A stretch of DNA of 64,000 nucleotides from a virus (IMGVR_UViG_3300004255_000002:1-64000); one strand, 5' to 3'. Numbered from the stretch's first letter, positions 1,011-59,747 are shown. Translations and numbers: made by a program. Notes: generated by a model not told the origin, from the sequence alone.

Positions 1011-1459
1011 CCAGAGAACTACAAAAGCACCGTACCTTCCTACGAGTAGCCACATCCCTAGCAACCTTGGCAACGTGTAAACGCCGTCAGGTCGGGTGCG
1101 TGATGGTAGACCACAAATTCCGTATTCTAGCTTCTGGCTACAACGGTACACCCGCTGGTGCAGTTAATTGCACAGAAGTTCCATGTAAGGGCGCAGGTTA
1201 CCCGTCAGGTCAAGGATTGGAGTTTTGTGAGGCATTACATGCAGAGCAGAATGCCTTGATACAGCTAAAAGAGCCAGAGCGTGTGGCCTACATCTACAAC
1301 ACGGCATCACCCTGCATGCACTGTGTAAAGATGCTAGCCAATACCTCTGCACACACTATCGTGTTTGCGCAAGAGTACCCACACTACGAAGCAAGAGACT
1401 ACTGGTTAGCTCTAGGTCGTGAGTGGTTACACATCAAAGATATACAGGAGCCAGTATGA
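1007..1459 (+). CDS. dCMP deaminase
   Basis: HAEQNA and PCMHC zinc motifs, CKRRQVG and GYNG motifs; start moved to ATG 1007 (ATGA overlap, AAGGA RBS). Confidence 0.92.
   Translation: MTRELQKHRTFLRVATSLATLATCKRRQVGCVMVDHKFRILASGYNGTPAGAVNCTEVPCKGAGYPSGQGLEFCEALHAEQNALIQLKEPERVAYIYNTASPCMHCVKMLANTSAHTIVFAQEYPHYEARDYWLALGREWLHIKDIQEPV
1159..1172. repeat. TGCA-box copy (TGCAGTTAATTGCA), inside dCMP deaminase
   Basis: read directly; 1 of 18 copies. Confidence 0.85.
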
Positions 1460-1959
1460 GCATACGCATCCCAGAAGACCAGATAGGCACCGAGGCAGAA
1501 AACGTGGGCATCGATAAGCTTAAATACCCATGGAAGGTGACCTCCTATAAATGTTGGGATGGATACCCCCTAACTAAAACCTATCAGGTGGAAGGCCACT
1601 ACCGATGGTACTGGCAAGCTAACCTCGTGTCATGGTGGGTGCACCACTTCTGGGGTCTTGCGTGTAACACATGGAGATTTAAACCAGAAAACGAGGTCAA
1701 AATGAATGCATCAGCCTTATCTATACTAGTCAAACTAGTGGACGCCATCGCAGTAGATGTGCCTATTGAACGTAACCGTAATGTGTATCTGTGGGTGCAA
1801 AGTAAGTATGGTGAAGAGGTGGCAGATGCATGGCTAGAAGGCCTCCTGCACATCGTCAGCACAGGTAGGCCAGAGGTGTTAGAGGTTGGTCGGGCTATGG
1901 GTGTTAAGCACTACCGTGAAGCCGTGGATAAGGTGCTCACTGAAATAAAGCTTGACTAA
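1456..1959 (+). CDS. hypothetical protein
   Basis: ORF; start moved to 1456 (CAGGAG RBS, ATGA overlap). Confidence 0.7.
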   Translation: MSIRIPEDQIGTEAENVGIDKLKYPWKVTSYKCWDGYPLTKTYQVEGHYRWYWQANLVSWWVHHFWGLACNTWRFKPENEVKMNASALSILVKLVDAIAVDVPIERNRNVYLWVQSKYGEEVADAWLEGLLHIVSTGRPEVLEVGRAMGVKHYREAVDKVLTEIKLD

Positions 1960-1979
1960 TTTAGTTAATATGCTATCAT
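1952..1979 (+). promoter_or_regulatory. early-class sigma70-type promoter
   Basis: TTGACT-16bp-TATCAT with extended -10 TG; matches 11-member family. Confidence 0.8.
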
Positions 1980-2009
1980 GAATATAGTTAGATAACCCAA
2001 GGAAACCAA

Positions 2010-2369
2010 ATGGCAATAACACTCAAAAAGAAGCCAGCACCAGAACCAGCCAAACTAAGCAAGCAAGAGCTTAAAGACCTAGTGGCGGCGGGGTTGGTAG
2101 AAGCACCAGCAGAACCTATCGCACCTCAATTCCAGCTCCACGTAGGCACCCGCGTAGTGGTCAATCATGGCCTATTCCCATGGGTACCCCACTACAAAGA
2201 AGGCGATACAGGCACTGTGCTTAGTATCACCACAGCTAAAGATAAGGTACTCAATGACATCCACCGTTATGACCTAGTTGCAGTGCGCCTAGACACACCG
2301 CACACCGATGAGGTGGTAACGCTCAGTCGTTGGGAGCTAGCACCAGAACCAACCGAGCAGGAGGACTAA
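2010..2369 (+). CDS. hypothetical protein, possible SH3/KOW-like beta domain
   Basis: ORF after promoter; VGTRVVV...GDTGTVLSI...VAVRLD pattern. Confidence 0.65.
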   Translation: MAITLKKKPAPEPAKLSKQELKDLVAAGLVEAPAEPIAPQFQLHVGTRVVVNHGLFPWVPHYKEGDTGTVLSITTAKDKVLNDIHRYDLVAVRLDTPHTDEVVTLSRWELAPEPTEQED

Positions 2370-2585
2370 ATGGACAAGCGTTTCTACATTGTGTACGGGT
2401 GTATCGCGTTCCTATTCGTGGACATCCTCATGCTACTGGCACTGACCTATCGCTGGTGGACAACCCCAATTGAGCAGAACCTATCTAACCTAATGATGCT
2501 ACTTATCGTGGTGGCTATCGTGGGTATCTGCGTAGTAATCGACGCCTTGCATGACATAGGCTCAGACGAACCTAATGGAGACTAG
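2370..2585 (+). CDS. small membrane protein
   Basis: two hydrophobic stretches; GGAGGA RBS. Confidence 0.7.
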   Translation: MDKRFYIVYGCIAFLFVDILMLLALTYRWWTTPIEQNLSNLMMLLIVVAIVGICVVIDALHDIGSDEPNGD

Positions 2586-6295: not shown

Positions 6296-6634
6296 ATGAA
6301 ATCAGATACCGTATGGGATAAAGAGAAAATCCAACAACTACTATCCACGAATGACAGAGCCGTCGCTCGTGCGGTGGTGGTTATTTACCAGAGGCAGACA
6401 GATGAAGAACGCGGGAGCGGGAAGTCTACAGTCAGCAATGGAAAGGGCTTTACTAAATTTGATGCAGAGTTCATGAGTTCCATCGCCAGAACGCTCCTTA
6501 CCAGAGGCTCACTAACCCCAAAACAATTAGCCATAACCAGAAACAGAGTTAAGAAGTACTGGCGTCAATTGGTGGAGCTAGCTAACCTCACCACAGCAGT
6601 TCAAGAGTACGAAAGGATGAGCAATGGCGAGTAG
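6296..6634 (+). CDS. hypothetical phage protein
   Basis: 112 aa; RQT.DE...NG.GF..FDA...SxKQ pattern typical of phage early proteins. Confidence 0.8.
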   Translation: MKSDTVWDKEKIQQLLSTNDRAVARAVVVIYQRQTDEERGSGKSTVSNGKGFTKFDAEFMSSIARTLLTRGSLTPKQLAITRNRVKKYWRQLVELANLTTAVQEYERMSNGE

Positions 6635-6848
6635 GAAAATCGTGATTGAGGGATGCGGTGTATGCCCTCACAGAGACCATAGAGGTGCGTTCGGTGCCGT
6701 AGGGTACATACCAAAGTGTGGCAAGATGAACAGAGACTTACCGTTCACAGCAGTCACACAAGAATGTCAGGGACGAAAAGGGCACTACAATACCGTAGCG
6801 GTGGGCACTGGAGTAATCCCAGACTGGTGTCCACTAGAGAAAAACTAG
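6624..6848 (+). CDS. small Cys-rich protein
   Basis: CGVCPH...C...C...WCPL. Confidence 0.7.
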   Translation: MASRKIVIEGCGVCPHRDHRGAFGAVGYIPKCGKMNRDLPFTAVTQECQGRKGHYNTVAVGTGVIPDWCPLEKN

Positions 6849-6862
6849 TGCAATTAACTGCA
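6849..6862. repeat. TGCA-box copy (TGCAATTAACTGCA), between stop codon and promoter
   Basis: read directly. Confidence 0.85.
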
Positions 6863-8016: not shown

Positions 8017-8193
8017 ATGAAACAACTAATCAAGGTGCAATTTAAGTTTAACGGCAAGGACGAACTACCAGCCAAAGGCACCGTGTTTCAGACAGGCTTT
8101 AAGTCCATGGAAGTTGCCGAGTACGAAATCAACCAAACCAATACAGCCAATAACGGCTGGTCAGCACAACTAGCGGAGACTACTAATGTTTAA
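8017..8193 (+). CDS. 58-aa hypothetical protein (MKQLIKVQFK...)
   Basis: translated by hand; strong RBS; overlaps ligase start. Confidence 0.7.
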   Translation: MKQLIKVQFKFNGKDELPAKGTVFQTGFKSMEVAEYEINQTNTANNGWSAQLAETTNV

Positions 8194-9061
8194 CCCACAT
8201 CTATCAGGTGAAGGCATCTACGGACAAATCACATACCCTAAACTAGCCAGCCCAAAATTAAACGGGGTGCGTGGCATAGTTCAAGAAATGCAATTAGTTG
8301 CACGTAGCCTTAAGGCCATCCCTAACGACCATACACGTAACCGCTTTGAGCATAGCTACCTGAACGACTTTGATGGTGAGCTTGTGGTCGGCCCATTTGG
8401 GGCACCAGATGTATTCACCACCTCTACCTCAGGTGTAATGACCAAGAAAGGCGAACCAGAGGTGTTGTGGTACGTGTTCGACTGCTACCACCCAACTGCA
8501 CCGTTTGAAACTCGTATTGAGATGCTACGCGAACGCTACAATGATAACCCTCATGAGCATGTACGCTTAGTGCCTCATCGTATGGTGCACAGCGATGAAG
8601 AGGTGGAGCAGTTTAAGAATGAGATGATTGCGTTAGGCTATGAAGGTCTAGTATTACGCGACCCTCGTGCCAAGTATAAGCAAGGCCGCTCCACTGACTT
8701 AGAGGGCTCATTCCTACGTATCGTGCCATGGCATGCTGGTGAGGTAATCATTCTGGGTGTTGAAGAAGGCCAAATCAATCAGAACGAATCCAAGGTAAAC
8801 GAATTAGGCTACCTTAAAAAGTCCAGCCACAAGGCTAACAAAGTAGGCTCAGGTCAAGCAGGGTCGTTCCAAGTGCGCGACATCAAGACACTAGCTGAGT
8901 TCTCTATGGCGGTGCCGTCAGACGCACTACAGAAGCATGTGTGGGCGAATAAAGATGAGTACATCGGTAAACTAGCCAAGTACCTATACAAAGACCCTGT
9001 AAAAGGCGTCATCCCCCGCTTCCCGCAATACCAAGGTTTACGTTCACCGTTGGATATGTAG
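8186..9061 (+). CDS. ATP-dependent DNA ligase (atypical motifs)
   Basis: motif I SPKLNG, III FDGEL, IIIa YVFD, IV EGLVLR, C-terminal OB-fold ending PRFP. Confidence 0.85.
   Translation: MFNPHLSGEGIYGQITYPKLASPKLNGVRGIVQEMQLVARSLKAIPNDHTRNRFEHSYLNDFDGELVVGPFGAPDVFTTSTSGVMTKKGEPEVLWYVFDCYHPTAPFETRIEMLRERYNDNPHEHVRLVPHRMVHSDEEVEQFKNEMIALGYEGLVLRDPRAKYKQGRSTDLEGSFLRIVPWHAGEVIILGVEEGQINQNESKVNELGYLKKSSHKANKVGSGQAGSFQVRDIKTLAEFSMAVPSDALQKHVWANKDEYIGKLAKYLYKDPVKGVIPRFPQYQGLRSPLDM
8289..8302. repeat. TGCA-box copy (TGCAATTAGTTGCA), inside ligase
   Basis: read directly. Confidence 0.75.
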
Positions 9062-9629: not shown

Positions 9630-9741
9630 AGATTTAAGTTACTGGAAACGTCAATGGGGCGTCCAACCGCAATTACGCATAATCCCTGTAGTTATCCGCC
9701 GCCTGTGTGAACACTGGGCGAGTATCACAAAGGACTATTAA
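9622..9741 (+). CDS. 39-aa small ORF
   Basis: translated by hand; GAGGA RBS; TAATG coupling to MTase. Confidence 0.4.
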   Translation: MHRDLSYWKRQWGVQPQLRIIPVVIRRLCEHWASITKDY

Positions 9742-10736
9742 TGCAATCAATTGCACAAGAGTTCCGCATTGACAAAGCAGGGCATTACCCTATCTCACCA
9801 CCTACGGACAACGAGGCACGAGAGGACTTTAATGCCCTTAAAGCTTTGGACTGGTCGGAGCTATTAAGGACTGGTGAGTGGCATTCACGCTCTGAGTTCG
9901 ACGCTCCTCAGGCTAGTTGGTACATTGCCAATAACAAGGTCGGCCTATTAGCCTCAGACCGTCACCACTGGTCAGCGCGGATGGCGTGTGATTCAGTGAA
10001 CTCACCATCACCAATCCGCTCATGGTACCAATCAGAGATACGCAAAACGCTAGAGAACTCTGTGTACTTTGAGGACAATCCAAAGACAGCCCTAGCATTG
10101 CGCAAGTACATTGCTTCACAGTTCCGCCCAAGCGCGGCACGGGCTTTGTATGGTGTGTTTAAAGCCAAGACTATCTACGACCCTTGCGGTGGATGGGGTG
10201 ACCGCTTAGTGGCGGCTCAGGCAGGTGACCATGACTACTTTGCTAGAGACACCAATCAACTAGTGCTAGCGGGGTATGCCTCTCAGCAACTCATGTACAA
10301 AACCAAAGCCAAGATAGGATGGGAGTACAAAGGCAGTGAGGTAGACGCACCCGCACATGACTTCTTCGACCTAAGCTTCACCTCTCCGCCGTATTGGAAG
10401 GCCGAGAAGTACCAAGGCGATAAGAGTTCGTACCACCTATTCAAGTCGTTTGATTCGTGGATTCAAGGCTTCATGATTCCGACAGTGAATAACTGCTGGA
10501 ACGCGGTCAAGGTCGGTGGTCACGTTTGTTTCAATGTCTCAGATGTGTACGCTAATCACACGGTTAATCGTATCTGCCAGCCCATCATTGACGAGTTACG
10601 CCGCTTAGGTGGGCAACCCTATGTCGCAGGGTACCAAATGGCTAAGCGCCCTAATAGTACTGCCCACAAGACTGGTGTATTTTGTGAGCCTATTATCATC
10701 TGCACCAAAACCAAACCAAGGAGCTCCAATGAGTAA
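9741..10736 (+). CDS. amino-type (m6A/m4C) DNA methyltransferase
   Basis: SAM motif YDPCGGWG followed by catalytic FTSPPY. Confidence 0.8.
   Translation: MQSIAQEFRIDKAGHYPISPPTDNEAREDFNALKALDWSELLRTGEWHSRSEFDAPQASWYIANNKVGLLASDRHHWSARMACDSVNSPSPIRSWYQSEIRKTLENSVYFEDNPKTALALRKYIASQFRPSAARALYGVFKAKTIYDPCGGWGDRLVAAQAGDHDYFARDTNQLVLAGYASQQLMYKTKAKIGWEYKGSEVDAPAHDFFDLSFTSPPYWKAEKYQGDKSSYHLFKSFDSWIQGFMIPTVNNCWNAVKVGGHVCFNVSDVYANHTVNRICQPIIDELRRLGGQPYVAGYQMAKRPNSTAHKTGVFCEPIIICTKTKPRSSNE
9742..9755. repeat. TGCA-box copy (TGCAATCAATTGCA), over MTase start codon
   Basis: read directly. Confidence 0.8.
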
Positions 10737-12301: not shown

Positions 12302-12762
12302 GTTTAAGTCCTTTTGTACAAGCAGAATTACCGCCAGAGTACAAGGACCCACGAGCTTTTATGAACACCTTCGGGTGTTCATATGAGCAAGCCGTGGAGT
12401 ATGTAGTTCAGATGATGCGGGAGACCTTGGTCATTAATGACGTGTATCAGGTTAGTATTAGTCAGGTGCACTACGCTAAGAATTGGCCTCCAACTATCCA
12501 CTTATCCATCAAACGCATAGACAAGGAACCAGTTCATGACTGGCGCGACTTGCAGGAAATCAAGAATATGTTGGTGGGTCCTGAGCACGATGCGATTGAG
12601 ATATACCCAGCAGAATCCAAGCTAGTAGATATGGCAAACCAGTACCACCTCTGGGTATTTGCAAACCCAGAAGACCGCCTCCCAATAGGCTGGCAAACCC
12701 GTATGGTGGCAGACACACAACTAGCCGCGTCAGTCGGTGGCAAACAAAGGAGCTTCACATGA
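12298..12762 (+). CDS. conserved hypothetical phage protein
   Basis: HLSI...DW..LQ.IKN...G....A.EIYP....LVD.AN.YHLW pattern. Confidence 0.75.
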   Translation: MSLSPFVQAELPPEYKDPRAFMNTFGCSYEQAVEYVVQMMRETLVINDVYQVSISQVHYAKNWPPTIHLSIKRIDKEPVHDWRDLQEIKNMLVGPEHDAIEIYPAESKLVDMANQYHLWVFANPEDRLPIGWQTRMVADTQLAASVGGKQRSFT

Positions 12763-13304
12763 TAGTTTTAGGTATCCACGGCTTACGTGGGTCGGGTAAA
12801 GATACGCTAGCGGCAGAGCTAGCAAAGCGTATACACGGGGCGAGAACCATAGCCTTAGGTGACCGCTTGAAAGAAGTCTGCGCACTGCTATTCGACGTGC
12901 CTATTCATAATTTTTATGACCAAGAACTAAAAGAGACGGCTCAATTCCCTCATGGCACTCCTAGAGAGATAATGGTGGCGTTTGATGAGGCGGTGGTTCC
13001 TAAGTTTGGTCAGAACGTATTCCTGAACGCTATCTCACACATCATAGAGGCACAGAAGTACTCCCTGCCCTGCCTCATCATCACTGATGTACGTGGCGAG
13101 CATGAGGCTTCATTCCTACGCAGTCGAGGTGGGCGTATTATTCACATCCAGCGACCAGATATGCCAGTCAAGCCAGTCATTAATCACTGGAGTGAACAGG
13201 GTATCAAAATAGAGCACAGAGACTTCATGTACACCATACGTGAGGGCATGCATCATGTACATAACGCGGCGGATGATATCGTAAAACGCTTAAATAAAAG
13301 TTGA
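12759..13304 (+). CDS. deoxynucleoside monophosphate kinase (T4 gp1-like)
   Basis: GLRGSGKDT P-loop; ITDVR..HE...GG motif. Confidence 0.85.
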   Translation: MIVLGIHGLRGSGKDTLAAELAKRIHGARTIALGDRLKEVCALLFDVPIHNFYDQELKETAQFPHGTPREIMVAFDEAVVPKFGQNVFLNAISHIIEAQKYSLPCLIITDVRGEHEASFLRSRGGRIIHIQRPDMPVKPVINHWSEQGIKIEHRDFMYTIREGMHHVHNAADDIVKRLNKS

Positions 13305-13328
13305 CAAATTAAATCAATCTGTTATTAT
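13301..13328 (+). promoter_or_regulatory. early-class promoter
   Basis: TTGACA-16bp-TATTAT with TG. Confidence 0.85.
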
Positions 13329-13342
13329 TAAGTATACAGAAA

Positions 13343-13359: not shown

Positions 13360-15576
13360 ATGGCAATAACCCTAAAAAGCAAAACAGGTAATACAGACAA
13401 GACCTTAGTGCCTAGGTTGTACAAGTTCGGTACAACCAATGAAGGCAATGCCAGCATGAAAGACGTGCTAGGTGGCAAGGGTGCTAACTTGGCAGAGATG
13501 GGTAGTATCGGTATCAGAGTACCCGATGGCTTTACTATCCCATGCGCCACGTCAGTTCTGTGGACCACGCTATCCAAGCATTCAACCCAAGAAAGCACCA
13601 AGGTTCAGCTTATGGAAGGCTTGATGAAGAAAGTCAAAGCCAACCTAGACCACCTTGAGACTGTGTATGGGTACATGCCGTTACTGTCTGTGCGCAGTGG
13701 TGCTCGTGTGAGTATGCCGGGGATGATGGATACCATTTTGAACGTGGGTATCACTAACGACAACCTAGAGTACTGGAAAACTAAGCTAGGTGAGCGTACT
13801 GCTTTGGACAGCTATCGCCGTCTGATAATGATGTACTCCACAGTGGCGTTAGGGTTAGAGCATGAGCCGTTTGACACTATCCTAGAAGAAGCCAAGCAGG
13901 AGGCTAATGTTACTGAGGATAGCCAGTTATCAGCGGATGAACTTAATCGCGTGGTGAAGCGCTACCTACAATACGTTTTCAACTGGTCTAATGGGGCTAA
14001 GTTCCCGCAGACGGTAGAGGGGCAGATTGAGGGCAGTATCAAGGCGGTATTTGAATCATGGAATAACCCTCGTGCAGTTGAGTACCGCAAAATCCACAAT
14101 ATCCCTGATGATTGGGGTACTGCGGTAAACATTCAGAGTATGGTGTTCGGCAATATGAATGACCAATCAGCTACAGGGGTGTTATTCAGCAGAGACCCTA
14201 GCACTGGAGAGAAGGTAATCACAGGTGAGTATCTAGTGAATGCCCAAGGTGAGGACGTGGTGGCAGGTATTCGTACCCCCTTACCTCTTACTGATATGAA
14301 GGATTGGAACTCCAAGGTTTACTTAAGCCTACGTGCCAATGTGGATGTGCTGGAAAAGCACTATCGTGATATGCAGGACATTGAGTTCACTATTCAGGAC
14401 GGTGAGCTTTACATCCTACAGACCCGTAATGGGAAGCGCAGTGCTAAATCAGCGTTCAAGGTGGCACATGATATGGCTACAGAAGGCCTAATCACAAAGT
14501 CTGAGGCCGTATCGCGGGTGAATCAAGAACAGCTCATGGCTATCATGCAGGATGTTATTGACCCTTCATTCAAGACCGAGCCGAATTTCACAGGCATTGC
14601 GGCAGGGGGTGGATTGGTGCAGGGTGTGATTGCACTCACAGCGGAAAGTGCAGTTAATTGCACAGTGCCTTGCATCCTCGTAACCAAGGAAACAGACCCT
14701 AACGATATTGCAGGGATGCATGCCTCAGTAGGTATCCTGACAGCCACAGGTGGCCTAACTAGTCACGCGGCAGTGGTAGCGCGAGGAATGAATAAGGCTT
14801 GTGTTGTGGGCGCTACTACCATGCAGTTAGATGTAGCTACTGTGTCCTACGGTGAGGGGGTGTACGCATCAGAAGGCGAGACCATTACCATTGACGGGGC
14901 AACAGGTCGCGTATGGTTTGGTGAAGTGCCTGTAATTGCTGGCGGCATGACACCAGAGGCGAACACTATCATCCTGTGGGCCACCGAAGGCTCTGCTACA
15001 AAGATTGACCTAGACCATACTCAACACAACTATGGACTGGATAAAGTCAAGGCAAAGAACCTATACCTGACCACAGCATTGCTAGTACCAGACAGAGCGG
15101 CAGTAGGCACTCTAAACACTAACATGCAAGCGTTAGGGGGGTTACTTCAAAAGCTCAAGACTACTATGCTAGTGATAGACCTTAAAACCAGAACCAGCCA
15201 CTATGACCAAGCAGATAGAACGATGGCCTATATGTTCGGTGAATCGTTCGTGAATGGGGTTACCTATAAAGCTGACGCAGTAGTTCAGAATTGGGGCGAG
15301 AGTCTGAAAAGTAAGGTAGTGTTCGTAAATGCCGAGGAGGAAACTGATACTCTGATTAAGGCAGGGTGGCGGGTTAATGGTAAGGTGAAGACCGTAGCCG
15401 ATTTGTACGCATCTCATGGCACTGTGGATATCAGTTCATCGACTATCACTGCACTGTTCGGTAGTGTGGAAGTATACGAGAAAGTTAAAGCCATGGTAGA
15501 GAAAGAGAAAGGCGTGAAATTCCACGCAGGAGCACCAGCTAAATACTGGTTTGAAGCATTAGAAAAGGAAGCGTAA
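13360..15576 (+). CDS. ppdK: PPDK-derived ATP-grasp + phospho-His swivel protein lacking the PEP-binding barrel
   Basis: GGKGANLAEM, SVRSGARVSMPGMMDT, QGEDVVAGIRTP, DIEFTI, GGLTSHAAVVARG (His469); last ~210 aa lack the GTNDL barrel motif. Confidence 0.9.
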   Translation: MAITLKSKTGNTDKTLVPRLYKFGTTNEGNASMKDVLGGKGANLAEMGSIGIRVPDGFTIPCATSVLWTTLSKHSTQESTKVQLMEGLMKKVKANLDHLETVYGYMPLLSVRSGARVSMPGMMDTILNVGITNDNLEYWKTKLGERTALDSYRRLIMMYSTVALGLEHEPFDTILEEAKQEANVTEDSQLSADELNRVVKRYLQYVFNWSNGAKFPQTVEGQIEGSIKAVFESWNNPRAVEYRKIHNIPDDWGTAVNIQSMVFGNMNDQSATGVLFSRDPSTGEKVITGEYLVNAQGEDVVAGIRTPLPLTDMKDWNSKVYLSLRANVDVLEKHYRDMQDIEFTIQDGELYILQTRNGKRSAKSAFKVAHDMATEGLITKSEAVSRVNQEQLMAIMQDVIDPSFKTEPNFTGIAAGGGLVQGVIALTAESAVNCTVPCILVTKETDPNDIAGMHASVGILTATGGLTSHAAVVARGMNKACVVGATTMQLDVATVSYGEGVYASEGETITIDGATGRVWFGEVPVIAGGMTPEANTIILWATEGSATKIDLDHTQHNYGLDKVKAKNLYLTTALLVPDRAAVGTLNTNMQALGGLLQKLKTTMLVIDLKTRTSHYDQADRTMAYMFGESFVNGVTYKADAVVQNWGESLKSKVVFVNAEEETDTLIKAGWRVNGKVKTVADLYASHGTVDISSSTITALFGSVEVYEKVKAMVEKEKGVKFHAGAPAKYWFEALEKEA
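14649..14662. repeat. TGCA-box copy (TGCAGTTAATTGCA), inside PPDK-like gene
   Basis: read directly. Confidence 0.85.
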
Positions 15577-15968: not shown

Positions 15969-16526
15969 ATGAAACTAACTATTGGTATCCCTGTACATAT
16001 TGGCAACATCCACGGCTACGTTTATGGTGGCCCATTCAAACACTATGAAGTAGGTACACGCAGACTGGTAGGTGTGAAGATGGCGGAAGAAATCGACCAC
16101 CCACACGATATCAGCATCCCCACAGAAGACTTCTCAGTACCAAGTCAGCGCGATATGGAGCAAGGCCTAATCAAGGCTCTGGCTAGTATGAATCAAGGCA
16201 ACGACATCTACGCTGGTTGCATGGGCGGTATTGGTCGTACAGGTCTATTCATGGGTTGTATGGCACGGGTGCAGTTCCATTATGCTGGTAGTCCTGACGA
16301 CCCTGTGGCCTTTGTACGTAAACACTTTAAACCGCATGCGATTGAGACCAGAGAGCAACAGAACTTCGTGCGCAACTTTGATACCACGAAAGTGATTGAG
16401 TACATCCTAGCCCTAGAAGAGGCCAAAGAGGTAATCAAGTATGTAGCCAAGGTAGAGAAAGTCGAGGTAGTAATTACCCCATGGATGTGGTTCAAGCGCA
16501 AATTGCAATCAATTGCACCGTGGTAA
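15969..16526 (+). CDS. CX5R (PTP/dual-specificity-like) phosphatase 1
   Basis: GCMGGIGRTG P-loop; upstream PTEDFSVP acid loop. Confidence 0.85.
   Translation: MKLTIGIPVHIGNIHGYVYGGPFKHYEVGTRRLVGVKMAEEIDHPHDISIPTEDFSVPSQRDMEQGLIKALASMNQGNDIYAGCMGGIGRTGLFMGCMARVQFHYAGSPDDPVAFVRKHFKPHAIETREQQNFVRNFDTTKVIEYILALEEAKEVIKYVAKVEKVEVVITPWMWFKRKLQSIAPW
16504..16517. repeat. TGCA-box copy (TGCAATCAATTGCA), end of phosphatase gene, 16 bp upstream of promoter
   Basis: read directly. Confidence 0.8.
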
Positions 16527-22342: not shown

Positions 22343-22356
22343 TGCAATTAACTGCA
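22343..22356. repeat. TGCA-box copy (TGCAATTAACTGCA), 2 bp after polA stop
   Basis: read directly. Confidence 0.85.
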
Positions 22357-26205: not shown

Positions 26206-26219
26206 TGCAGTTAATTGCA
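26206..26219. repeat. TGCA-box copy (TGCAGTTAATTGCA), upstream of protease
   Basis: read directly. Confidence 0.85.
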
Positions 26220-27029: not shown

Positions 27030-27051
27030 CCTGTGCAGTTAATTGCACAGG
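27030..27051. repeat. extended TGCA-box CCTGTGCA-GTTAAT-TGCACAGG upstream of scaffold
   Basis: 8-bp perfect arms; core box 27034-27047. Confidence 0.85.
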
Positions 27052-28337: not shown

Positions 28338-29276
28338 ATGTCAACAAATCAAGACCTTATCAAGAAAGCAGACATTGCGCTAGCAGACTTGAGTTCAGAC
28401 GGTGGTTTACTTAACCCAGAGCAAACGGACAAATTCATCCGTACATTGATTGATAGCCCAACGCTATTGAATCGCGCTCGTGTGGTTACAATGAACTCAC
28501 CACAACGCAAGATTAACAAAATCGGTTTCGGTTCACGTATCATGCACGCGGCTACATCTGGCGTTGCATTAGGTTCTGGTAGCCGCTCTAAACCTGACTT
28601 AGGTCAAGTAGAGTTGAACACCAAAGAAATCATCGCTGAAATCAATATTCCATACGATGTATTGGAAGACAACATCGAAGGCGGTAATATCGGTGCGGCG
28701 TTACAACAAGGTGGTGGCGGTCTACACAACACAATCGTGCAATTAATTGCAGAGCGTGCGGCGTTAGACTTGGAAGAGTTGGGTATCTTGGGTGATACAA
28801 GCTCAGGCGACCCATACCTAGCTTTAGTTGATGGTTACTTGAAACGTGCTACAGGCCACATCGTTAATGGTGGCGGCGGCGCTATCAGTAAGAACTTGCT
28901 TAAAGCTGGTGTTAAAGCCATGCCAGACAAGTACCTACGTAACCGTGGCGCACTAGCTCACTTGGTTTCAGTGGACAATGAAACAGAATACCGTGATACC
29001 TACGCAAGCCGTCAAACAGCTTTAGGTGATGCACAGTTACAAGGTACAAGCCCATTGTTCGCATACGGCTCTAACATCTTGGCAGTGCCTTTAATGCCAC
29101 AAGCCCAAGGTCTGTTCACTGACCCACAAAACTTGATTTTCGGTGTGCAACGTAAAATCAACATCGAATTTGATAAAGATATCCGCGCTCGTACATTCAT
29201 CATCGTGTTGACTGCTCGCGTGGACTTCCAAATCGAAGAAACCGATGCAGTGGTGCAGTACACCAACATTGGCTAA
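28338..29276 (+). CDS. major capsid protein (HK97 fold)
   Basis: GGLLNPEQ..KFI, DNIEG, AERAALDLEELG..GD, DG.LK; highly biased codons; followed by terminator. Confidence 0.9.
   Translation: MSTNQDLIKKADIALADLSSDGGLLNPEQTDKFIRTLIDSPTLLNRARVVTMNSPQRKINKIGFGSRIMHAATSGVALGSGSRSKPDLGQVELNTKEIIAEINIPYDVLEDNIEGGNIGAALQQGGGGLHNTIVQLIAERAALDLEELGILGDTSSGDPYLALVDGYLKRATGHIVNGGGGAISKNLLKAGVKAMPDKYLRNRGALAHLVSVDNETEYRDTYASRQTALGDAQLQGTSPLFAYGSNILAVPLMPQAQGLFTDPQNLIFGVQRKINIEFDKDIRARTFIIVLTARVDFQIEETDAVVQYTNIG
28738..28751. repeat. TGCA-box copy (TGCAATTAATTGCA, perfect palindrome), inside capsid gene
   Basis: read directly. Confidence 0.85.
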
Positions 29277-33649: not shown

Positions 33650-34096
33650 ATGCAAGTAGTAAAATTGTCAGACCTTATTCCCCAGACTGATACTGTAGAA
33701 GTACAGACAGGTATCAGCATCCAATTGAACCCGCTTAGCCTAGAGCAGATTGCCAAGCTATTCTGGGAGCAACAAGACCAATTCCTAGCTATCTACCAAG
33801 AAGGCACCAAAGCTGAGCCGAACTACGGCCCAATGGTACTAGCCGCCCCTCGTATGGTGGCTGAGATGATTGCTATGAGTGCAGGTCAAGAAGAACAAAT
33901 AGACACCGTACTCAATCTAGCTGGTACTGTGCAATTAACTGCACTCGCTAAAGTGTGGCGCTTATCGGTGCCCGACCCAAAAAAATTGACCGAAGCTCTA
34001 ACGGAACTAATGGGAGAGCTTCGCAAAACAAGCGCGGCAGTGGCTCAGCCAAAAGTAACAGAGAAAGAGCAATCGAAGCCTTCGAGCACGACATAG
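33650..34096 (+). CDS. tail assembly chaperone (gpG-like)
   Basis: between tube and tape measure; contains slippery site. Confidence 0.8.
   Translation: MQVVKLSDLIPQTDTVEVQTGISIQLNPLSLEQIAKLFWEQQDQFLAIYQEGTKAEPNYGPMVLAAPRMVAEMIAMSAGQEEQIDTVLNLAGTVQLTALAKVWRLSVPDPKKLTEALTELMGELRKTSAAVAQPKVTEKEQSKPSSTT
33930..33943. repeat. TGCA-box copy (TGCAATTAACTGCA), inside chaperone gene
   Basis: read directly. Confidence 0.85.
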
Positions 34097-37757: not shown

Positions 37758-37771
37758 TGCAGTTAATTGCA
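37758..37771. repeat. TGCA-box copy (TGCAGTTAATTGCA), 2 bp after tape measure stop
   Basis: read directly. Confidence 0.85.
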
Positions 37772-42987: not shown

Positions 42988-45197
42988 TGTCAAAAGGTAA
43001 AGCGGCAATAGTTGGGTGGAAGTATTCACTGGGCATGCATATGATTTTGTGCCATGGGCCAGCTAATGAGGTTCAAGCCATCTCCTTTGGTGGTCGCCAA
43101 GCGTGGTCAGGTGCTCGTGTGGGTTCTGGGGATATCTCAGTCAACAACCCTAGCTTGTTTGGTGGAGACCAGCGTGAGGGCGGTGTAGTCGGAACCGTTC
43201 ACGTAGCTATGGGTGATGCTAGCCAAGACCAGAATCCCTACCTAGTGTCACAGTTGGGTTCCAACGTGCCTGCCTACCGTGGATTGGTGAGCATGATATT
43301 CAACAAGTTCAATATCGGCTCTAACAACCCTTATGTGAAGTCACTGGCTATCCGCATCAAGAGGACTACGGCAGGGTGGCTAGGGGACGTTCCTTGGTAC
43401 ACAGCTAAGGTAGACATCAGCGGCGCTATGAACGCGGCTCACATTGTCTACCAGTGCTTAACTGACCCAGAGTGGGGCATGGGCTACCCATCTACCAGCG
43501 TGGACGATAATCAGTTTAAAGCCACTGCGGACACCTTATTCACTGAGGGCTTTGGTCTATGTTTGATGTGGAATCAGCAAGGTAAGATTGAGGACTTCAT
43601 TGGTGACGTGTGCAACCACATTGGGGCAGTGTTAAGAACCGACCCACTCACAGGTAAGTTCCAGCTTAAGCTTATTCGTGAGGACTACACGGCAGGTAGT
43701 TTATTCCTGTTTGATGAAAGCAACTCTAAAATAGAAGAGTATCAACGCCCTAACTGGGGTGAGACCACTAACGAGATTGTTGTGGGCTACACCGATATGG
43801 CCTCAGGGCTCAAGAGGGTAACCGCTGTACAGGACTTGGCAAACATCGCAGTGCAAGGTTCCGTGGTGTCTGCTTCTCGTGAATACCCCGGTATTGTTTC
43901 AGATGCAATCGCTGGCAGAATCGCTATGCGTGATTTACGTGCGGCATCTACCCCATTAGCGAAAGTGCAGTTAATTGCAAATCGTAAAGGACTGAACTTA
44001 AACATTGGGGACGTAGCGAAATTCAGCAATGCGAACTATGGCATCGTGGGTATGCCCCTTCGTATATTGGGTATATCCTACGGCACCCTCTTAGATGGGA
44101 CTATCAAGATTGACGCGGTAGAAGACATCTATGGTATGCCTACGACATCCTATGTAACCCCTCAAGGCGTGAGTTGGGTGGACCCAGCAATTCAGCCAAC
44201 CCCAGTGGTGCTTAGCAAGTTGATAGAGGTGCCTTACTGGGAGGTGCTACGTTCGTCTACCACCGCTGATTTTAATACCCTAGACAACCTCTCAGCATTC
44301 GTGTCAGCGGTTGCTGATAAGCCTGCATCGGGGATGTTCAGCTTCAATCTAAGTATCAATGATGGGTCAGGTAACTATCTACTGGATGATGGTAGCACCT
44401 TCACCCCAACCTGCTTGTTATCGGCAGGTATCGGGTATGCAGATGTAACACTGACCTACACCAGTGAAGTAGACCTATCCTCAGTCGTCATGAACACATA
44501 TGGCTACATAGACAATGAGTGTGTAGTGGTCACAGCCATTAATACGATTACCAAGGTCATCACTATCAAGCGTGGCATGATGGACACCGTACCAGAGATT
44601 CACAACTCTGGTGCTAGATTATGGTTCTCAGAAGAGTTCACAGCATTCTCACAGGTAGAGCGGTTGAGTGGGGATGCAGTCAACGTGAAGTTGCTTACCG
44701 TATCTGCGTTAGGTGTATTGCCAGCGGTATCAGCCACTAACATAGGTATTACTATGGCTGGGAGATTCGGGTCACCTTACCCACCAGCTAGGGTGAGGAT
44801 TAATGGCTTAGAGTACCCAGACATTATTTCTGATACCTTGGTGCTTACATGGGCACACAGAGATAGAACCACTCAAACAGGCCCAACATTAGTAGACCAG
44901 TACGCTGGTAACATCGGACCTGAGCCGAGCACCACCTACACTGTGAACTACTACCGAGTGACCAATGGGGCGTTGTTAGCCTCAGCTTCTGGGCTGACAG
45001 GTACTACACACACCCCAACACTACCAGCAGGGTCATACTTTATTCGTATTGAGTTGCGTAGCTGGCGTGCTGGCTACATGAGCTGGCAGAAGCATTCAAT
45101 CGTTGCGTTGTTTGTGAATACAGCCCAAACTAGGATTTTAGAGAACTTAAATAGACGGGTTCTTGAAGACGGTGTATCAGTTCGAGTAACTCAATAG
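42987..45197 (+). CDS. tail tip / central tail protein
   Basis: GWKYSLG.H...C.GP, N.AHI.Y..LT...WG.G, W.HRDR. Confidence 0.85.
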   Translation: MSKGKAAIVGWKYSLGMHMILCHGPANEVQAISFGGRQAWSGARVGSGDISVNNPSLFGGDQREGGVVGTVHVAMGDASQDQNPYLVSQLGSNVPAYRGLVSMIFNKFNIGSNNPYVKSLAIRIKRTTAGWLGDVPWYTAKVDISGAMNAAHIVYQCLTDPEWGMGYPSTSVDDNQFKATADTLFTEGFGLCLMWNQQGKIEDFIGDVCNHIGAVLRTDPLTGKFQLKLIREDYTAGSLFLFDESNSKIEEYQRPNWGETTNEIVVGYTDMASGLKRVTAVQDLANIAVQGSVVSASREYPGIVSDAIAGRIAMRDLRAASTPLAKVQLIANRKGLNLNIGDVAKFSNANYGIVGMPLRILGISYGTLLDGTIKIDAVEDIYGMPTTSYVTPQGVSWVDPAIQPTPVVLSKLIEVPYWEVLRSSTTADFNTLDNLSAFVSAVADKPASGMFSFNLSINDGSGNYLLDDGSTFTPTCLLSAGIGYADVTLTYTSEVDLSSVVMNTYGYIDNECVVVTAINTITKVITIKRGMMDTVPEIHNSGARLWFSEEFTAFSQVERLSGDAVNVKLLTVSALGVLPAVSATNIGITMAGRFGSPYPPARVRINGLEYPDIISDTLVLTWAHRDRTTQTGPTLVDQYAGNIGPEPSTTYTVNYYRVTNGALLASASGLTGTTHTPTLPAGSYFIRIELRSWRAGYMSWQKHSIVALFVNTAQTRILENLNRRVLEDGVSVRVTQ
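43966..43979. repeat. TGCA-box copy (TGCAGTTAATTGCA), inside tail tip gene
   Basis: read directly. Confidence 0.85.
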
Positions 45198-48360: not shown

Positions 48361-48374
48361 TGCAGTTAATTGCA
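48361..48374. repeat. TGCA-box copy (TGCAGTTAATTGCA), intergenic before lysis cassette
   Basis: read directly. Confidence 0.85.
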
Positions 48375-48482: not shown

Positions 48483-48496
48483 TGCAACTAATTGCA
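48483..48496. repeat. TGCA-box copy (TGCAACTAATTGCA), upstream of lysis cassette
   Basis: read directly. Confidence 0.8.
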
Positions 48497-48519: not shown

Positions 48520-48915
48520 GTGTCTGAGAATAACCGTAGAGTGACTGATGATGCCAATGACGAAATAAGTCAGTTAATTCGTCAAGAGAATGACCCAGAG
48601 CGTCGCGCCTTCTTGCTTATCCTGCAAAACATTAATCTATCGCTGGCGTCCAATACGACCACGGTCAATGAAATCGACACCCAGCTTAAGCAACACCTTA
48701 TTGAGTTCCGTACCACCACCGATGCACAAGAAGCCCTCCTGAATAAAGGTCGTGGCGTTTGGAAGTTCGCAGGCGTGGTATTAGGTATAGCACAGAGCGC
48801 AGTAGTGGGTATGGTCATATACGGCTTCACAGAGCTACGTAGCCTGCACGAAGAAGACATCCGCCTCAGCACCCGCTTAACCATTCAAGAAACAATCAAT
48901 AAGGGCAAGCCATGA
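48520..48915 (+). CDS. holin/antiholin-like membrane protein
   Basis: GTG start, AGGAG RBS; coiled coil plus one TM segment; precedes endolysin. Confidence 0.55.
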   Translation: MSENNRRVTDDANDEISQLIRQENDPERRAFLLILQNINLSLASNTTTVNEIDTQLKQHLIEFRTTTDAQEALLNKGRGVWKFAGVVLGIAQSAVVGMVIYGFTELRSLHEEDIRLSTRLTIQETINKGKP

Positions 48916-50238: not shown

Positions 50239-50270
50239 GTAGTTACCGTTCTCGTGCCGTGCCTCGCCCT

Positions 50271-50298
50271 GACCCACCTAAGACGTGGGTCTCTTTTT
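50271..50298 (+). terminator. rho-independent terminator after lysis genes
   Basis: GACCCAC/GTGGGTC plus TCTTTTT. Confidence 0.75.
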
Positions 50299-50299
50299 G

Positions 50300-50313
50300 T
50301 GCAATCAATTGCA
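50300..50313. repeat. TGCA-box copy (TGCAATCAATTGCA), 10 bp upstream of promoter
   Basis: read directly. Confidence 0.8.
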
Positions 50314-54182: not shown

Positions 54183-54459
54183 TACCTTGGTAGTCCATAC
54201 TAACGATGAGCACCAGATGCTTGGAGACCAAATGGGCTTGCCTATGTCTCCCTCTGATGTTGTTCTTCTGTTAGAGAAGTGCTTAGCCCACCTAAGCCTG
54301 TCTAAAGAGGTGATGTTCTTTCGCGGGTACGAAATGCTTAAGGCCAATGCAGGTACGATGCGTGAGCAGTTAGATGAGTCCTATATTGTCAACGGCTACG
54401 AAGAGGCAATGACTAAGCGTGACGAATTGTTGCGGGAGTTTGGCAAATGCTTGAAGTAA
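54175..54459 (+). CDS. hypothetical protein
   Basis: 94-aa ORF. Confidence 0.65.
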   Translation: MSDTLVVHTNDEHQMLGDQMGLPMSPSDVVLLLEKCLAHLSLSKEVMFFRGYEMLKANAGTMREQLDESYIVNGYEEAMTKRDELLREFGKCLK

Positions 54460-55454
54460 TAGACCATAGCCCAAAAGACGTGTTGTTTAAGGTCGAGTAC
54501 TTTGACTACTTTAAAGACCACCTAGTGTGCCTGATGCTGTCTCAGTTACATTACTGGTACACACCAGACAGTAAAGGTAATTCTAAACTCAGGGTGCACC
54601 GTAACGGTAAGTGGTGGTTAGCTAAGACCCACGTAGAGTGGTACAAAGAACTCAGACTATCTCGCAGTCAGGTTAATCGTTGCTTAAAAGTGTTAGAGGA
54701 TGCAGGAGTGATTGAAGTTATCACTATGGGTTTTAACGGTAGGCCAACTACTCATATTATGGCTATCGGGGTGAACGGTAACTACCCGTTAAAGGGTAAT
54801 CAATTGCTGATAGACCACCTCCCTAATGCTCATACATGTGCATTACATTGCACGTCATCGAACAATGCATTGCACGTAGGCGAGCAATCTAATACAGAGA
54901 GTACAGCAAAGAGTACTACAGAGACTTTGGCAATCGCTAAAGCTCAGCCCACAGATACATCTTTAAATAAGGATACAGATATGAAAGGTCCATCCACAGC
55001 TAATCAAGCTCTGGCCCACATGAAGCAACTACAAGCCAAACAGTCTGGTGTTGTGGTTCCTGATAAGGTGACCAGTAAAACATTACAGGATGTGTGGAAG
55101 CGCTCATGCACTATCTTTGTTGCCGCGTTTACTGCTAAGCAACGAGGTCAGTTCACGCACATCCTAAAACGCATCCCACAAGAACCAGTACACACGCTCA
55201 ATTACGTGCTGGAAAACTGGGTGGAATTTACCAAGTATGTAGAGGTAAACGCCGCCGCGAAAAATACACCACTAACGCCAAATGTGGATTTTGTATTAAA
55301 GTATTGTTCTGAGGCCTACAATTATTACCTCAGTTCCAAGCCTGTGCAATTAATTGCAAAACCTAAACAGGTGAAAGAAGTGAAGAAGGTAGTGGTCGAA
55401 GAGAACCCAGACGATGCTCCTGCAACACTAGAACAATTGCTGGCAATGGAGTAA
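54447..55454 (+). CDS. replication initiator-like winged-helix protein
   Basis: LSQLHYW...W..EL.LSRSQV.RCL..L...GVI; low-complexity linker; precedes loader and helicase. Confidence 0.65.
   Translation: MLEVIDHSPKDVLFKVEYFDYFKDHLVCLMLSQLHYWYTPDSKGNSKLRVHRNGKWWLAKTHVEWYKELRLSRSQVNRCLKVLEDAGVIEVITMGFNGRPTTHIMAIGVNGNYPLKGNQLLIDHLPNAHTCALHCTSSNNALHVGEQSNTESTAKSTTETLAIAKAQPTDTSLNKDTDMKGPSTANQALAHMKQLQAKQSGVVVPDKVTSKTLQDVWKRSCTIFVAAFTAKQRGQFTHILKRIPQEPVHTLNYVLENWVEFTKYVEVNAAAKNTPLTPNVDFVLKYCSEAYNYYLSSKPVQLIAKPKQVKEVKKVVVEENPDDAPATLEQLLAME
55345..55358. repeat. TGCA-box copy (TGCAATTAATTGCA), inside initiator-like gene
   Basis: read directly. Confidence 0.85.
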
Positions 55455-57741: not shown

Positions 57742-57765
57742 TTAATTAAGCCAAAGTGGTATAAT
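57738..57765 (+). promoter_or_regulatory. early-class promoter (variant)
   Basis: TTGATT-16bp-TATAAT with TG. Confidence 0.75.
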
Positions 57766-57811
57766 AAACAGGTAGTAAATAATTAACTAATTCCTATAGA
57801 GGAGAAATAAG

Positions 57812-58294
57812 ATGACGATTACCGTAACCAAACCAAAGCAGGTGGAGAAGGCAAAAGAGCAAGCCCTCTTAGTCGATGCCACAGGCGCAACGCTTAGCCC
57901 AGAAGAGATGGACTACGAGCAACTAGCCGACCTGTACGGTAGCCTAGAAGACCAAATCGAAGCACTCAAAACCAACCCAATCTACACACAGTTCGACCTT
58001 GTTAAAAAGGCGCTAGTCACTAAGATTAATGCCGAAGTTGAAGCGGCAGACATTGCTGAAATCAAAGGCGAGCACTGGTTGCTAGAGATTGGCGCATGCG
58101 GTAAGAACCCACGTAAAGTGAAAGACGTAGGCCTGATTCAAACCTTTGTAGGTCAAGAAGTGTTCGCTCAGATTGCCAAGGTGAATATCACGGATGTAGA
58201 AAAGTACCTAACCCCAGACCAAGTAGCTAAAGTACTTGATTCGGATACAGGCTACTCGGCTAACCGTAAAATCACTGCTAAGTTCTTAGGCTAA
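57812..58294 (+). CDS. hypothetical protein
   Basis: 160 aa; GAGGAG RBS. Confidence 0.75.
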   Translation: MTITVTKPKQVEKAKEQALLVDATGATLSPEEMDYEQLADLYGSLEDQIEALKTNPIYTQFDLVKKALVTKINAEVEAADIAEIKGEHWLLEIGACGKNPRKVKDVGLIQTFVGQEVFAQIAKVNITDVEKYLTPDQVAKVLDSDTGYSANRKITAKFLG

Positions 58295-58296
58295 TC

Positions 58297-58770
58297 ATGG
58301 CTATAGACGAGAAACGACTCAAAATCAAAGAGCGTTCTCATATCTGGGCAGAGGAGTTTATTAAGGCTCCTCGCCAGACGATGAACGACGAGCAGGTTAG
58401 TATCTTCATGCGGTGCTGTCTCAGTGAAAAAGACCCAGACTTCCCACCAGAAGAAGTACGCAAGAGCTTCCAGTGGCGTATGTTGGAGTCACGACTACAG
58501 CACTACAACGTGAATGCTACCAATGCATTAAAGACCTTCATTACCTGCATCGCAGACCGTCCAGCGATTGTGACGATGTGGAGCGTGGCACTGGTATACA
58601 TGAGTATCTTTAAGACCCATGAAGATGCACAGATGGATATTGACGTGCTAGCCAGAACATTCCCTAACGGCTTCCCTACAGCCAAGGCACTGCAAGAGTT
58701 GTGGGATGCACAGAAGGGCTTTAATATTGACCTAGATGTAGACAATCTATTAGACGTAGCGGAGTTCTAA
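58297..58770 (+). CDS. hypothetical protein
   Basis: 157 aa. Confidence 0.75.
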   Translation: MAIDEKRLKIKERSHIWAEEFIKAPRQTMNDEQVSIFMRCCLSEKDPDFPPEEVRKSFQWRMLESRLQHYNVNATNALKTFITCIADRPAIVTMWSVALVYMSIFKTHEDAQMDIDVLARTFPNGFPTAKALQELWDAQKGFNIDLDVDNLLDVAEF

Positions 58771-59747
58771 TGCGCAAGGATAAGGTACTGGCATTATTGG
58801 TGGCCTTAAAAACCAAGAAGACAGGTGAACGCGCTGGCACATGGATGGAGGCTAAATGCCCATTTGTGTGGAAGCACGGCGGTGTAGACCAACACCCGTC
58901 ATTCGGTATCAAGGTATCTGACAAGAAGAAGTCCATTTGTAAGTGCTGGTCATGTGGGTATGGCGGGGACTTGCAGGACTTAGTATTAGACATCGCTCAG
59001 CATGTTCGTAAGCATAAGTTGACGGGCTACAATCTCAAGTTGGCAATGCAATTAACTGCAAATGAGGCAGAGGATATGGATATCAACCCAGAAGATATCC
59101 CTGACTATGACGCGGCAATTGCGGAGGCAACCGAGGTAGTGTTTCCGTCTTACTGGCTAGAAAGCTTCCCAAAGGTTCAGAAGTACAAAGAGCCAATGGC
59201 ATACCTACTAGGCAGAAACATGACCCACAGTATGATAGAGATGCTGGATGTGCGCTACGACCCGCTACAGAAGCGAGTGTGCTTTCCGTTCTACAACTTT
59301 AAAGGCGAGTTGATGGGTGTGCAGGGCAGGGACTTAAATAAAGAGTCTAACCTGCGCTACTATCAATATGGCTATAATGGTCAAAGAAACGGTATGTGCT
59401 GGTACGGTGAAAACCGCGTAACATTGGACAAACCAGTCGTATTAGTTGAGGGTGTGTTCGACTATGTGAGCATACTGCGGGTGTATCCAAATGTACTCGC
59501 CAGCTTTACCTCTGGGCTGTCAACAGAGAAGGTCAAGCGGGTAGCTGATGCTGATTCAATTATCAGCTTGTATGACTACGGCAACGGTGGTAATGCGGCT
59601 CGTGAAGCACTACCTAAGAAGCTTAAGAAAGTTCCGATGAGGCACCTTATACCCACGGAACTGGAGGATGATGCAGGTAACATGACATTAGAGCAAGTTA
59701 CCGCGCATTTGCAAGGCCACGTTAAGCTATCTAGCTACGTGTATTAA
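58770..59747 (+). CDS. DNA primase
   Basis: Zn finger CPF..H...C.CWSC; TOPRIM LVEGVFD, YD...GG. Confidence 0.88.
   Translation: MRKDKVLALLVALKTKKTGERAGTWMEAKCPFVWKHGGVDQHPSFGIKVSDKKKSICKCWSCGYGGDLQDLVLDIAQHVRKHKLTGYNLKLAMQLTANEAEDMDINPEDIPDYDAAIAEATEVVFPSYWLESFPKVQKYKEPMAYLLGRNMTHSMIEMLDVRYDPLQKRVCFPFYNFKGELMGVQGRDLNKESNLRYYQYGYNGQRNGMCWYGENRVTLDKPVVLVEGVFDYVSILRVYPNVLASFTSGLSTEKVKRVADADSIISLYDYGNGGNAAREALPKKLKKVPMRHLIPTELEDDAGNMTLEQVTAHLQGHVKLSSYVY
59047..59060. repeat. TGCA-box copy (TGCAATTAACTGCA), inside primase
   Basis: read directly. Confidence 0.85.

Follow-up and report, generated by a model that had tools for sequence, protein, structure and literature searches.

A Dispersed 14-bp Palindrome in a Broad Group of Tailed Phages: Putative Docking Sites for a Phage-Encoded DNA-Binding Protein of Two-Fold Symmetry

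The window analyzed here, bases 1-64000 of the virus record IMGVR_UViG_3300004255_000002 (64,000 nucleotides; the full record of 90,529 bp is referred to as G000), contains 18 dispersed copies of a 14-base palindrome with the core TGCAA-N4-TTGCA, whose flanks often read G...C. Judged from the sequences of the related phages, this palindrome is a strongly selected DNA-level signal shared across the group to which G000 belongs. We suggest, with a probability of about 70%, that a DNA-binding protein with two-fold symmetry, encoded by the phages themselves, docks at the palindromes and has co-evolved with them across the group. The near-confinement of the motif to phage DNA in three host-derived assemblies, the co-varying versions found in sister lineages, and the occurrence of the motif in phages of both alpha- and gammaproteobacterial hosts together argue for a phage-encoded reader.

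A search with the strict pattern TGCARYYAATTGCA recovered exactly the 18 copies listed in the initial annotation of the window, against an expectation of 0.00 after dinucleotide shuffling; the copies at 28738 and 55345 are perfect palindromes (TGCAATTAATTGCA) and were counted on both strands. The annotation had also placed ten copies in coding sequences (CDSs), where they encode AVNC, VQLIA, VQLTA, and QSIA, and eight in gaps, and had pointed to degenerate copies at 54839 and ~63629; all of this is correct, with three mismatches in each degenerate copy. Over the full G000 record there are 27 strict sites, and 29 at no more than two mismatches to TGCAATTAATTGCA. The mismatch spectrum is sharp (4, 22, 3, and 6 sites with 0, 1, 2, and 3 mismatches, respectively), and in 25 of the 29 copies the mismatches are confined to the six central bases. 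The codon-shuffled null that the annotation had proposed does not explain this frequency: with each protein and its codon usage fixed and intergenic DNA shuffled, shuffled versions of G000 averaged 0.22 sites and never exceeded 2, compared to the 27 observed. Intergenic DNA, which makes up 6.6-8% of the genome, holds 13-15 of the 29 sites (a ~6-fold enrichment, with about half of the sites in genes), and seven of the 29 lie 0-6 nt past a stop codon, while the intragenic sites use all three reading frames. The mean interval is ~3 kb, and the spacing is more even than under random placement, with a gap coefficient of variation of 0.59 (0.95 for random, p ~0.002) and a largest gap of 6.8 kb (12.6 kb for random, p ~0.004).

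G000 is 99% complete, has a GC content of 47.6%, and carries essentially all of its genes on the plus strand. Identities of 30-68% in the genes for portal, capsid, DNA polymerase A, DnaB, primase, a RecA-like protein, and terminase connect it with its relatives, which by this measure include the Stenotrophomonas phages DLP5, DLP3, and Summit, the Rhodobacter phage RcZahn, the Rhizobium phage TM16, and the Vibrio SIO-2 group. This DLP5/RcZahn/SIO-2 group consists of tailed phages of roughly 80-100 kb, several of them cultured, on Vibrio, Stenotrophomonas, and Rhodobacter. We compared G000 with six further records (G001, G002, G004, G005, G007, and G010), with 41 IMG/VR loci sampled around one conserved gene, and with the named phage records; L-numbers below denote IMG/VR and prophage loci. 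BLASTN of G000 against each of the six records aligned 0-8% at 66-72% identity, the GC content spans 43-61% across the group, and a megablast search of a phage collection with 12 kb of the window gave no match.

In the relatives, TGCAA-N4-TTGCA has a density like that in G000 or above it, with a range of 0.2-1.45 sites per kb. There are ~52 sites in G001 (mostly perfect), 28 in G002, 19 in 33 kb of G004, 21 in 35 kb of G005, and 37 in G010, while the named phages have 33 (Summit), 20 (RcZahn), 12 (SIO-2), and 18 (KarBoss), and DLP5 has 26 exact copies of TGCAATCAATTGCA. Many IMG/VR loci carry the motif too; most of the 41 sampled loci contain it, and the maximum of 1.45 sites per kb is reached in L189. 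Each genome favors one or a few spacers (TTAA, TCAA, CTAA, or others). Sister lineages have palindromes of their own, for example TGAAC-TTAA-GTTCA. In G007 the half-site and spacer read TGATC/TGAAC-TYAA (the G007-type palindrome is TGAACTTAAGTTCA); in L224, which is no nearer to G007 than other group members are, TGAAC/TGCAC-TTAA; and in L208 and L209 the palindrome is GGCAA-TCAA-TTGCC. The TGCAA half-site is combined with a different spacer in TM16 (CATA) and in L212, L213, L216, and L218 (CCAC, GCGA, GCGC, or ACGT). The papers describing DLP5/DLP3 and RcZahn make no mention of the repeat, and the 14-mers were not found in the literature searched.

Conservation in relatives, which the initial annotation had named as a check, is evident at homologous junctions and at one coding position. 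Despite the lack of nucleotide similarity, sites recur after the DNA polymerase stop codon, between the MuF-like and protease genes, after the capsid gene, 5′ of the gene for a 304-aa protein discussed below, and 5′ of an AAA ATPase gene, where G007 carries its own version of the motif. Six genomes have the site at one homologous codon position of a PPDK-like kinase gene (14649..14662 in the window), with residues that track the local variant: SAVNCT in G000, DAINCK with a perfect palindrome, and, in DLP5 with its TTGA spacer, AAIDCK. The gene in RcZahn, TM16, KarBoss, and SIO-2 has neither the site nor those residues. What is kept here is the DNA rather than the protein. Spacing is more even than random (p < 0.05) in eight of ten related genomes. 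Although G000 genes are all on one strand, sites occur in both orientations; a weak orientation bias differs in sign by genome, with asymmetric variants at 10:1 in G010 and 1:9 in KarBoss. Among TCAA-spacer sites, TGCAATCAATTGCA is on the sense strand 38 times and in reverse 9 times (whole genomes of G000, G002, RcZahn, DLP5, and G005), and TGCAG/CTGCA variants prefer opposite strands in different genomes.

In three host-derived assemblies, motif matches fall almost solely on the phage part, which accounts for 21 of 23 in a 4.7-Mb metagenome-assembled genome (MAG) that bears the label Acidobacteriaceae, for 18 of 19 in a MAG from the Burkholderiaceae, and for 5 of 6 in Azospirillum sp. RU38E. 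Reyranella massiliensis 521 and one Reyranella MAG each have a group member integrated as a prophage, with a polymerase of 45-46% identity and, in the MAG, a capsid of 57% identity; its variant TGCAATCGATTGCA is present in 19 and 29 exact copies in the two genomes, respectively. The other 39 Reyranellaceae genomes, which are prophage-free, contain 0-1 copies and lack a homologue of the 304-aa gene, which ties the motif to the phage.

Along the window, the first site (TGCAGTTAATTGCA, 1159..1172) is inside CDS 926-1459 and encodes AVNC. The site at 6849..6862 abuts the stop codon of 6624-6848, with an early promoter (6871) whose -35 box is 8 nt downstream, and is followed by one within a DNA ligase-like CDS (8289..8302, in 8186-9061) and one overlapping the start codon of CDS 9741-10736 (9742..9755), whose Pfam match to a DNA methylase domain is weak and sub-threshold. 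The last codons of 15969-16526 contain a site (16504..16517) that precedes a -35 box (promoter at 16534) by 16 nt, and this junction is kept in G001, G004, and G005. Two nucleotides past the DNA polymerase A stop codon is the site at 22343..22356, a junction that also has a site in G001, G004, G005, and G010; the same four records keep the one where the prohead protease gene follows the MuF/ADP-ribosyltransferase head gene (26206..26219). Another intergenic site (27034..27047) lies 59 nt 5′ of CDS 27107-28300, and a perfect palindrome (28738..28751) is within the major capsid gene (28338-29276). Further sites are within CDS 33650-34096 (33930..33943), 2 nt past the stop codon of a gene for a 1149-aa tape-measure-like protein, with the next start codon 19 nt on (37758..37771), within CDS 42987-45197 (43966..43979), 5 nt past the stop codon of 47477-48355 (48361..48374), and 23 nt 5′ of CDS 48520-48915 (48483..48496). 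The site at 50300..50313 abuts the 3′ side of a terminator-like hairpin, with 10 nt separating it from the -35 box of an early promoter (50324) downstream. The second perfect palindrome (55345..55358) is near the 3′ end of a gene for an O-like/DnaD-like replication initiator (54447-55454), where G001 and G002 have a site at the corresponding point of the gene, and the last site (59047..59060) is within the primase gene (58770-59747). The two degenerate copies are TGCATTACATTGCA (54839..54852) and AGCAATTAACTGCG (63629..63642). Two terminator-like hairpins of G000 (window ~50270-50299 and genome ~72520-72551) share a similar stem-loop core, ACCTAAGACGTGGG, followed by a T-run, and both stand immediately 5′ of a palindrome. 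The kinase gene with the conserved coding site belongs to a region (13360-19305) that encodes, besides this PPDK-like enzyme of the His-swivel type, a small Zn-finger protein, a 378-aa orphan, and two phosphatase-like proteins with CX5R motifs. Every group member searched has the orphan, the kinase, and the two phosphatases.

Some of the sites are closely linked to promoters. G000 has 15 near-identical sigma-70-type early promoters (TTGACWAATT...TGnTATTAT), located in the window at 3398, 6871, 13301, 16534, 18369, 50324, and 51723, with the rest at genome positions 65813-90262. A palindrome is found 8-16 nt 5′ of the -35 box at seven of the 15, though only seven of the 29 G000 sites adjoin a recognizable promoter. 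In G001 and in the small-gene run of L189, the distance from the end of the motif to the -35 box is fixed at 8-9 nt, which places the site center near -50, and in L189 such a site and promoter pair precedes each of more than a dozen successive small genes. This L189 region (12500-20500 of IMGVR_UViG_3300025572_000001), with one perfect palindrome per 300-500 bp, is the densest form of the network, and its pairs consist of the palindrome with a CTTGCA/CTTGAC -35 box and a TAGAGT-like -10 box, followed by a small gene. A hidden class of activator-dependent promoters at the remaining sites was ruled out, as no conserved -10-like element is present 3′ of the non-promoter sites. The full promoter pattern in G000 is TTGACWAATTnnnTCAATnTGnTATTAT, in which the -35 box and spacer form a 17-bp dyad (TTGACTAATTTAGTCAA) that could be a second operator, for another regulator.

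The proposal of the initial annotation that the copies are binding sites of a dimeric protein acting genome-wide is thus favored by conservation, by the co-varying palindromes, by the coding site, and by near-absence from host DNA, but the binders it named are not. jackhmmer found no homologue of the MerR-like protein (62031-62528) in G001, RcZahn, and G007, and found the zinc winged helix-turn-helix protein (22416-22829) only in G000, DLP5, and G007; both are rejected, since each is without a homologue in some motif-rich relatives. A host MarR-type factor, the third suggestion, is unlikely given hosts as different as Vibrio, Stenotrophomonas, and Rhodobacter and the confinement of the motif to phage DNA in the three assemblies. 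The O-like initiator (54447-55454) was dismissed as well, not being found by jackhmmer in SIO-2 and KarBoss. The post-portal head protein combines, in G000 (window 24665-26089), a MuF-like domain with an ADP-ribosyltransferase exoenzyme domain (E 1.8e-19), while DLP5 and DLP3 encode a MuF-ParB fusion at the same position, which was detected in DLP3 virions. As the fusion partner differs between DLP5 and G000, this protein does not qualify as a conserved binder. Three small core proteins of 106, 190, and 160 aa were set aside too: the 106-aa protein is acidic, none of the three gives a sequence hint of DNA binding, and the TAL-effector matches of the 190-aa protein, which cover one 40-aa stretch, were judged spurious.

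Our tentative candidate for the most likely reader, which we put at somewhat under even odds, is the 304-aa orphan protein encoded at 65887-66801 of G000, just beyond the window. jackhmmer found a homologue in all ten other genomes searched. The only family matched is a PHROG of unknown function, and the 287 homologues are all unnamed; Pfam gave no match in any of the 38 family members tested, including to the ParB N-terminal (CTPase) domain, and a hidden Markov model search of the family against PDB sequences returned nothing. The AlphaFold model is confident at residues 65-200 (predicted local distance difference test above 90) and 220-300, and shows an N-terminal Lys/Ala-rich tail of 60 disordered residues, a central helical domain, and a C-terminal helical domain. 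On the strength of this model, the central domain is predicted to resemble the DNA-binding domain of ParB, KorB, and SopB, without the ParB N-terminal CTPase domain. VIA-align matched the model to the ParB DNA-binding domain bound to parS (Z 8.3 over 117 residues) and the KorB DNA-binding domain bound to its operator (Z 7.0 over 107 residues), followed by Spo0J (Z 7.0), KorB (Z 5.9), SopB (Z 4.8), and VirB (Z 4.3), and the ESM Atlas gives DUF3102, Plasmid_parti_N, and DUF3102+ParB_N clusters as look-alikes. Homologues that are otherwise 45-60% identical share two near-invariant segments, YRKAMYLxxIY and LGWTKLKEL. The motif lies within 100 bp 5′ of the open reading frame in 17 of 32 loci, and is doubled in G000, G001, and L191; in prophage loci, a site is 38 nt 5′ of the homologue in L243 and ~110 nt 5′ in Reyranella massiliensis (L242). 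The DLP3 homologue, gp62, is not listed in the DLP3 virion proteome, which was prepared from DNA-free ghost particles, so that its absence says little. In DLP5 the homologue is gp066 (YP_009619961.1). An HU-like gene (Bac_DNA_binding) is located directly 3′ of the homologue in L223 (3691-4245) and L226 (10978-11469).

If a phage-encoded protein does dock at the palindromes, one dimeric protein may read all of them. At promoter-adjacent sites, the bound protein would modulate early transcription, and at gene ends and within genes it might act as a boundary, a roadblock, or an organizing or loading point, with coverage of the whole genome. Evenly spaced sites, and copies in the chromosomes of lysogens, hint that the function goes beyond promoter control. 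A more specific version, which we consider doubtful but worth stating, is that the 304-aa family represents a ParB/KorB-like family that lost its CTPase domain, or never possessed one, and that marks the genomes of the group with evenly placed palindromes, organizing or insulating “self” DNA rather than acting at classical operators, and that in lysogens it also acts on the copies in the host chromosome.

Several observations weigh against docking by a phage-encoded reader or against the 304-aa protein as that reader. Most sites in most genomes have no recognizable promoter nearby, and therefore promoter control can be only part of the function. The 11-18 motif copies outside the prophage in the two Reyranella genomes are not predicted by a purely phage-internal network; in R. 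massiliensis 521, ~11 of the 19 TGCAATCGATTGCA copies are far from the prophage, in unique and mutually unrelated host DNA (G014:C1 positions 272683, 793446, 1164781, 1775151, 1775599, 2444996, 3183394, 3282787, 3420134, 4109362, and 4516921). As for the candidate, the top-ranked structural match is the unrelated Raf1 alpha domain (Z 9.2), the ParB-type Z values are middling for helical folds, and Foldseek against the PDB ranks the same ParB-type families, but with E values of at least 0.45. Junctions elsewhere are kept as well as the one 5′ of the 304-aa gene. Co-variation between helix and motif is unconvincing, as only the L208/L209 lineage changes both the helix and the half-site: G007 and L224, with TGAAC motifs, share just two residues absent from TGCAA-type sequences, and homologues with YRRAMYF or GWTKLRE variants, for which a changed motif was predicted, still go with TGCAA. 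Among nine protein families in the L224 region, none was enriched in specificity residues common to the two TGAAC lineages.

Among the other explanations, the one that survives best, although we regard it as unlikely, is that the palindromes are loading sites for a ParB_N-type, CTP-dependent clamp similar to KorB or Noc, serving plasmid-prophage partition and long-range silencing. ParB-family sites are palindromes of 13-16 bp, and the even spacing would fit a protein that loads and then slides. All but one of the searched genomes carry ParB_N genes, with two in G000 (69646-70299, encoding a 217-aa product, and 70253-71839), and DLP5, which lysogenizes as a phagemid, has two ParB-domain proteins (PMC5834331, PMC7326821). 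The exception is SIO-2, a motif-bearing phage in which jackhmmer finds no ParB_N protein. The 217-aa protein has no identified helix-turn-helix, with the Pfam ParB_N match restricted to residues 12-89 and structural matches to ParB/Noc ending near residue 100, and its gene adjoins a ParB-methyltransferase fusion, a layout typical of a DNA-modification module. Further, no ParA was found among the ~40 G000 proteins scanned with Pfam, which represent part of the proteome.

In a second alternative, less probable than the clamp, the sites are targets not of regulation but of site-specific modification, nicking, or nuclease protection linked to the DNA-modification genes of the group. DLP3 DNA resists 15 restriction enzymes (PMC7326821), and for this reason the group probably modifies its DNA; resistance to 15 different enzymes, however, implies a general rather than a site-specific modification. 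The PPDK-like kinase, two phosphatase, and ParB-methyltransferase genes are common to the group, and the site at 9742 overlaps the start codon of the CDS with the weak methylase-domain match, both in keeping with such a link. On the other hand, a nick at a palindrome would give a double-strand break, and the fixed offset of sites from the -35 box points to transcription.

The reader could instead belong to the host, which we hold to be quite improbable; in this case a conserved protein, for instance a global regulator or a nucleoid protein, would bind the sites and be exploited by the phages. An identical motif in alpha- and gammaproteobacterial phages and the extra-prophage copies in the two Reyranella genomes would be accommodated by a host reader, but the three assemblies in which the motif is almost solely on the phage part, the 39 prophage-free Reyranellaceae genomes with 0-1 copies, and the different palindromes of sister phages speak against it.

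Least credible is a role as an RNA hairpin, terminator, or processing signal, or as a recombination or mobile mini-element: many sites are 0-6 nt past stop codons or at module boundaries, and the changed base of the commonest variant still permits a G-U pair, but the flanks of separate copies share no similarity, the stem is just 5 bp with no U-tract after it and gains an A-C mismatch in the reverse orientation, and the hairpin is rejected because both orientations occur on a one-strand gene set and the favored one flips among genomes.

By analogy, the palindromes would form a dispersed binding-site network of a replicon-encoded regulator or organizer, a known kind of system of which this would be a new variant. 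Dispersed single-site networks are known from few replicons (KorB of RK2, the stoperators of L5, and C1 of P1), whereas the present one spans a broad and environmentally common phage group that includes many with uncultured hosts as well as phages studied for therapy; as cultured members exist, the question is directly testable. If it is true that the 304-aa protein binds the sites, an orphan family would gain a function, and a ParB-like DNA-binding module would be seen to work without a CTPase domain. New in this analysis are the cultured members and variant lineages, the coding site that co-varies with the motif, the tests on host genomes, and the ParB/KorB-like candidate, along with the finding that the MerR-like and zinc winged helix-turn-helix proteins can be rejected.

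The stoperators of the cluster A mycobacteriophages L5 and Bxb1, bound by the repressor gp71, are with the KorB operators the closest analogues, and resemble the present sites in being dozens of 13-14 bp elements enriched in short gaps with one assumed phage reader. Stoperators are asymmetric, oriented with transcription, and bound by the immunity repressor, whereas the sites here are palindromic, inconsistent in orientation, and half in genes, and no immunity repressor turned up; the stoperator-like role considered in the initial annotation therefore holds as an analogy but not as membership, given palindromic sites with a weak orientation bias that changes sign. The C1 operators of P1 are likewise dispersed, with more than 15 over a ~94-kb plasmid-prophage, and DLP5 is also a phagemid, but they are asymmetric 17-mers at promoters and not palindromic 14-mers. 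Being palindromic and unoriented, the present sites are neither stoperators nor C1 operators. The cluster O mycobacteriophages (Corndog group) reportedly carry a 17-bp palindromic repeat in ~30 copies per genome, with no known binder or function. It is similar as a group-specific palindrome of ~30 copies, and differs in sequence, host phylum, and phage lineage; we know of no report of even spacing or of a co-varying coding site for it.

The sites themselves resemble those of the ParB, KorB, and Noc systems, which are palindromes of 13-16 bp present once or many times, compared to a 14-bp palindrome in 27-29 copies here. The Noc-binding sites (NBS, a 14-bp palindrome) and parS are 14-16 bp palindromes scattered over the replicon, read by a ParB-type helix-turn-helix protein in an organizing rather than purely regulatory role. 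These proteins need their CTPase domain to spread, and the 304-aa candidate, which does not have this defining domain, would therefore not be a member of the ParB, KorB, or Noc systems. In design, the nearest analogue, as far as the comparison carries, is KorB with its operators in RK2 (OB, 12 copies of TTTAGCSGCTAAA), where a single dimeric protein, whose DNA-binding domain is of the ParB type, reads all of them. The present network differs in that it is on a phage replicon, has 2-10 times more sites at even spacing, and comes with a candidate that is without the CTPase domain and with no KorA or IncC/ParA partners seen among the ~40 G000 proteins scanned. In both cases, short palindromes are dispersed over a 60-90 kb replicon, with some sites abutting a -35 box, others farther off, and others inside genes.

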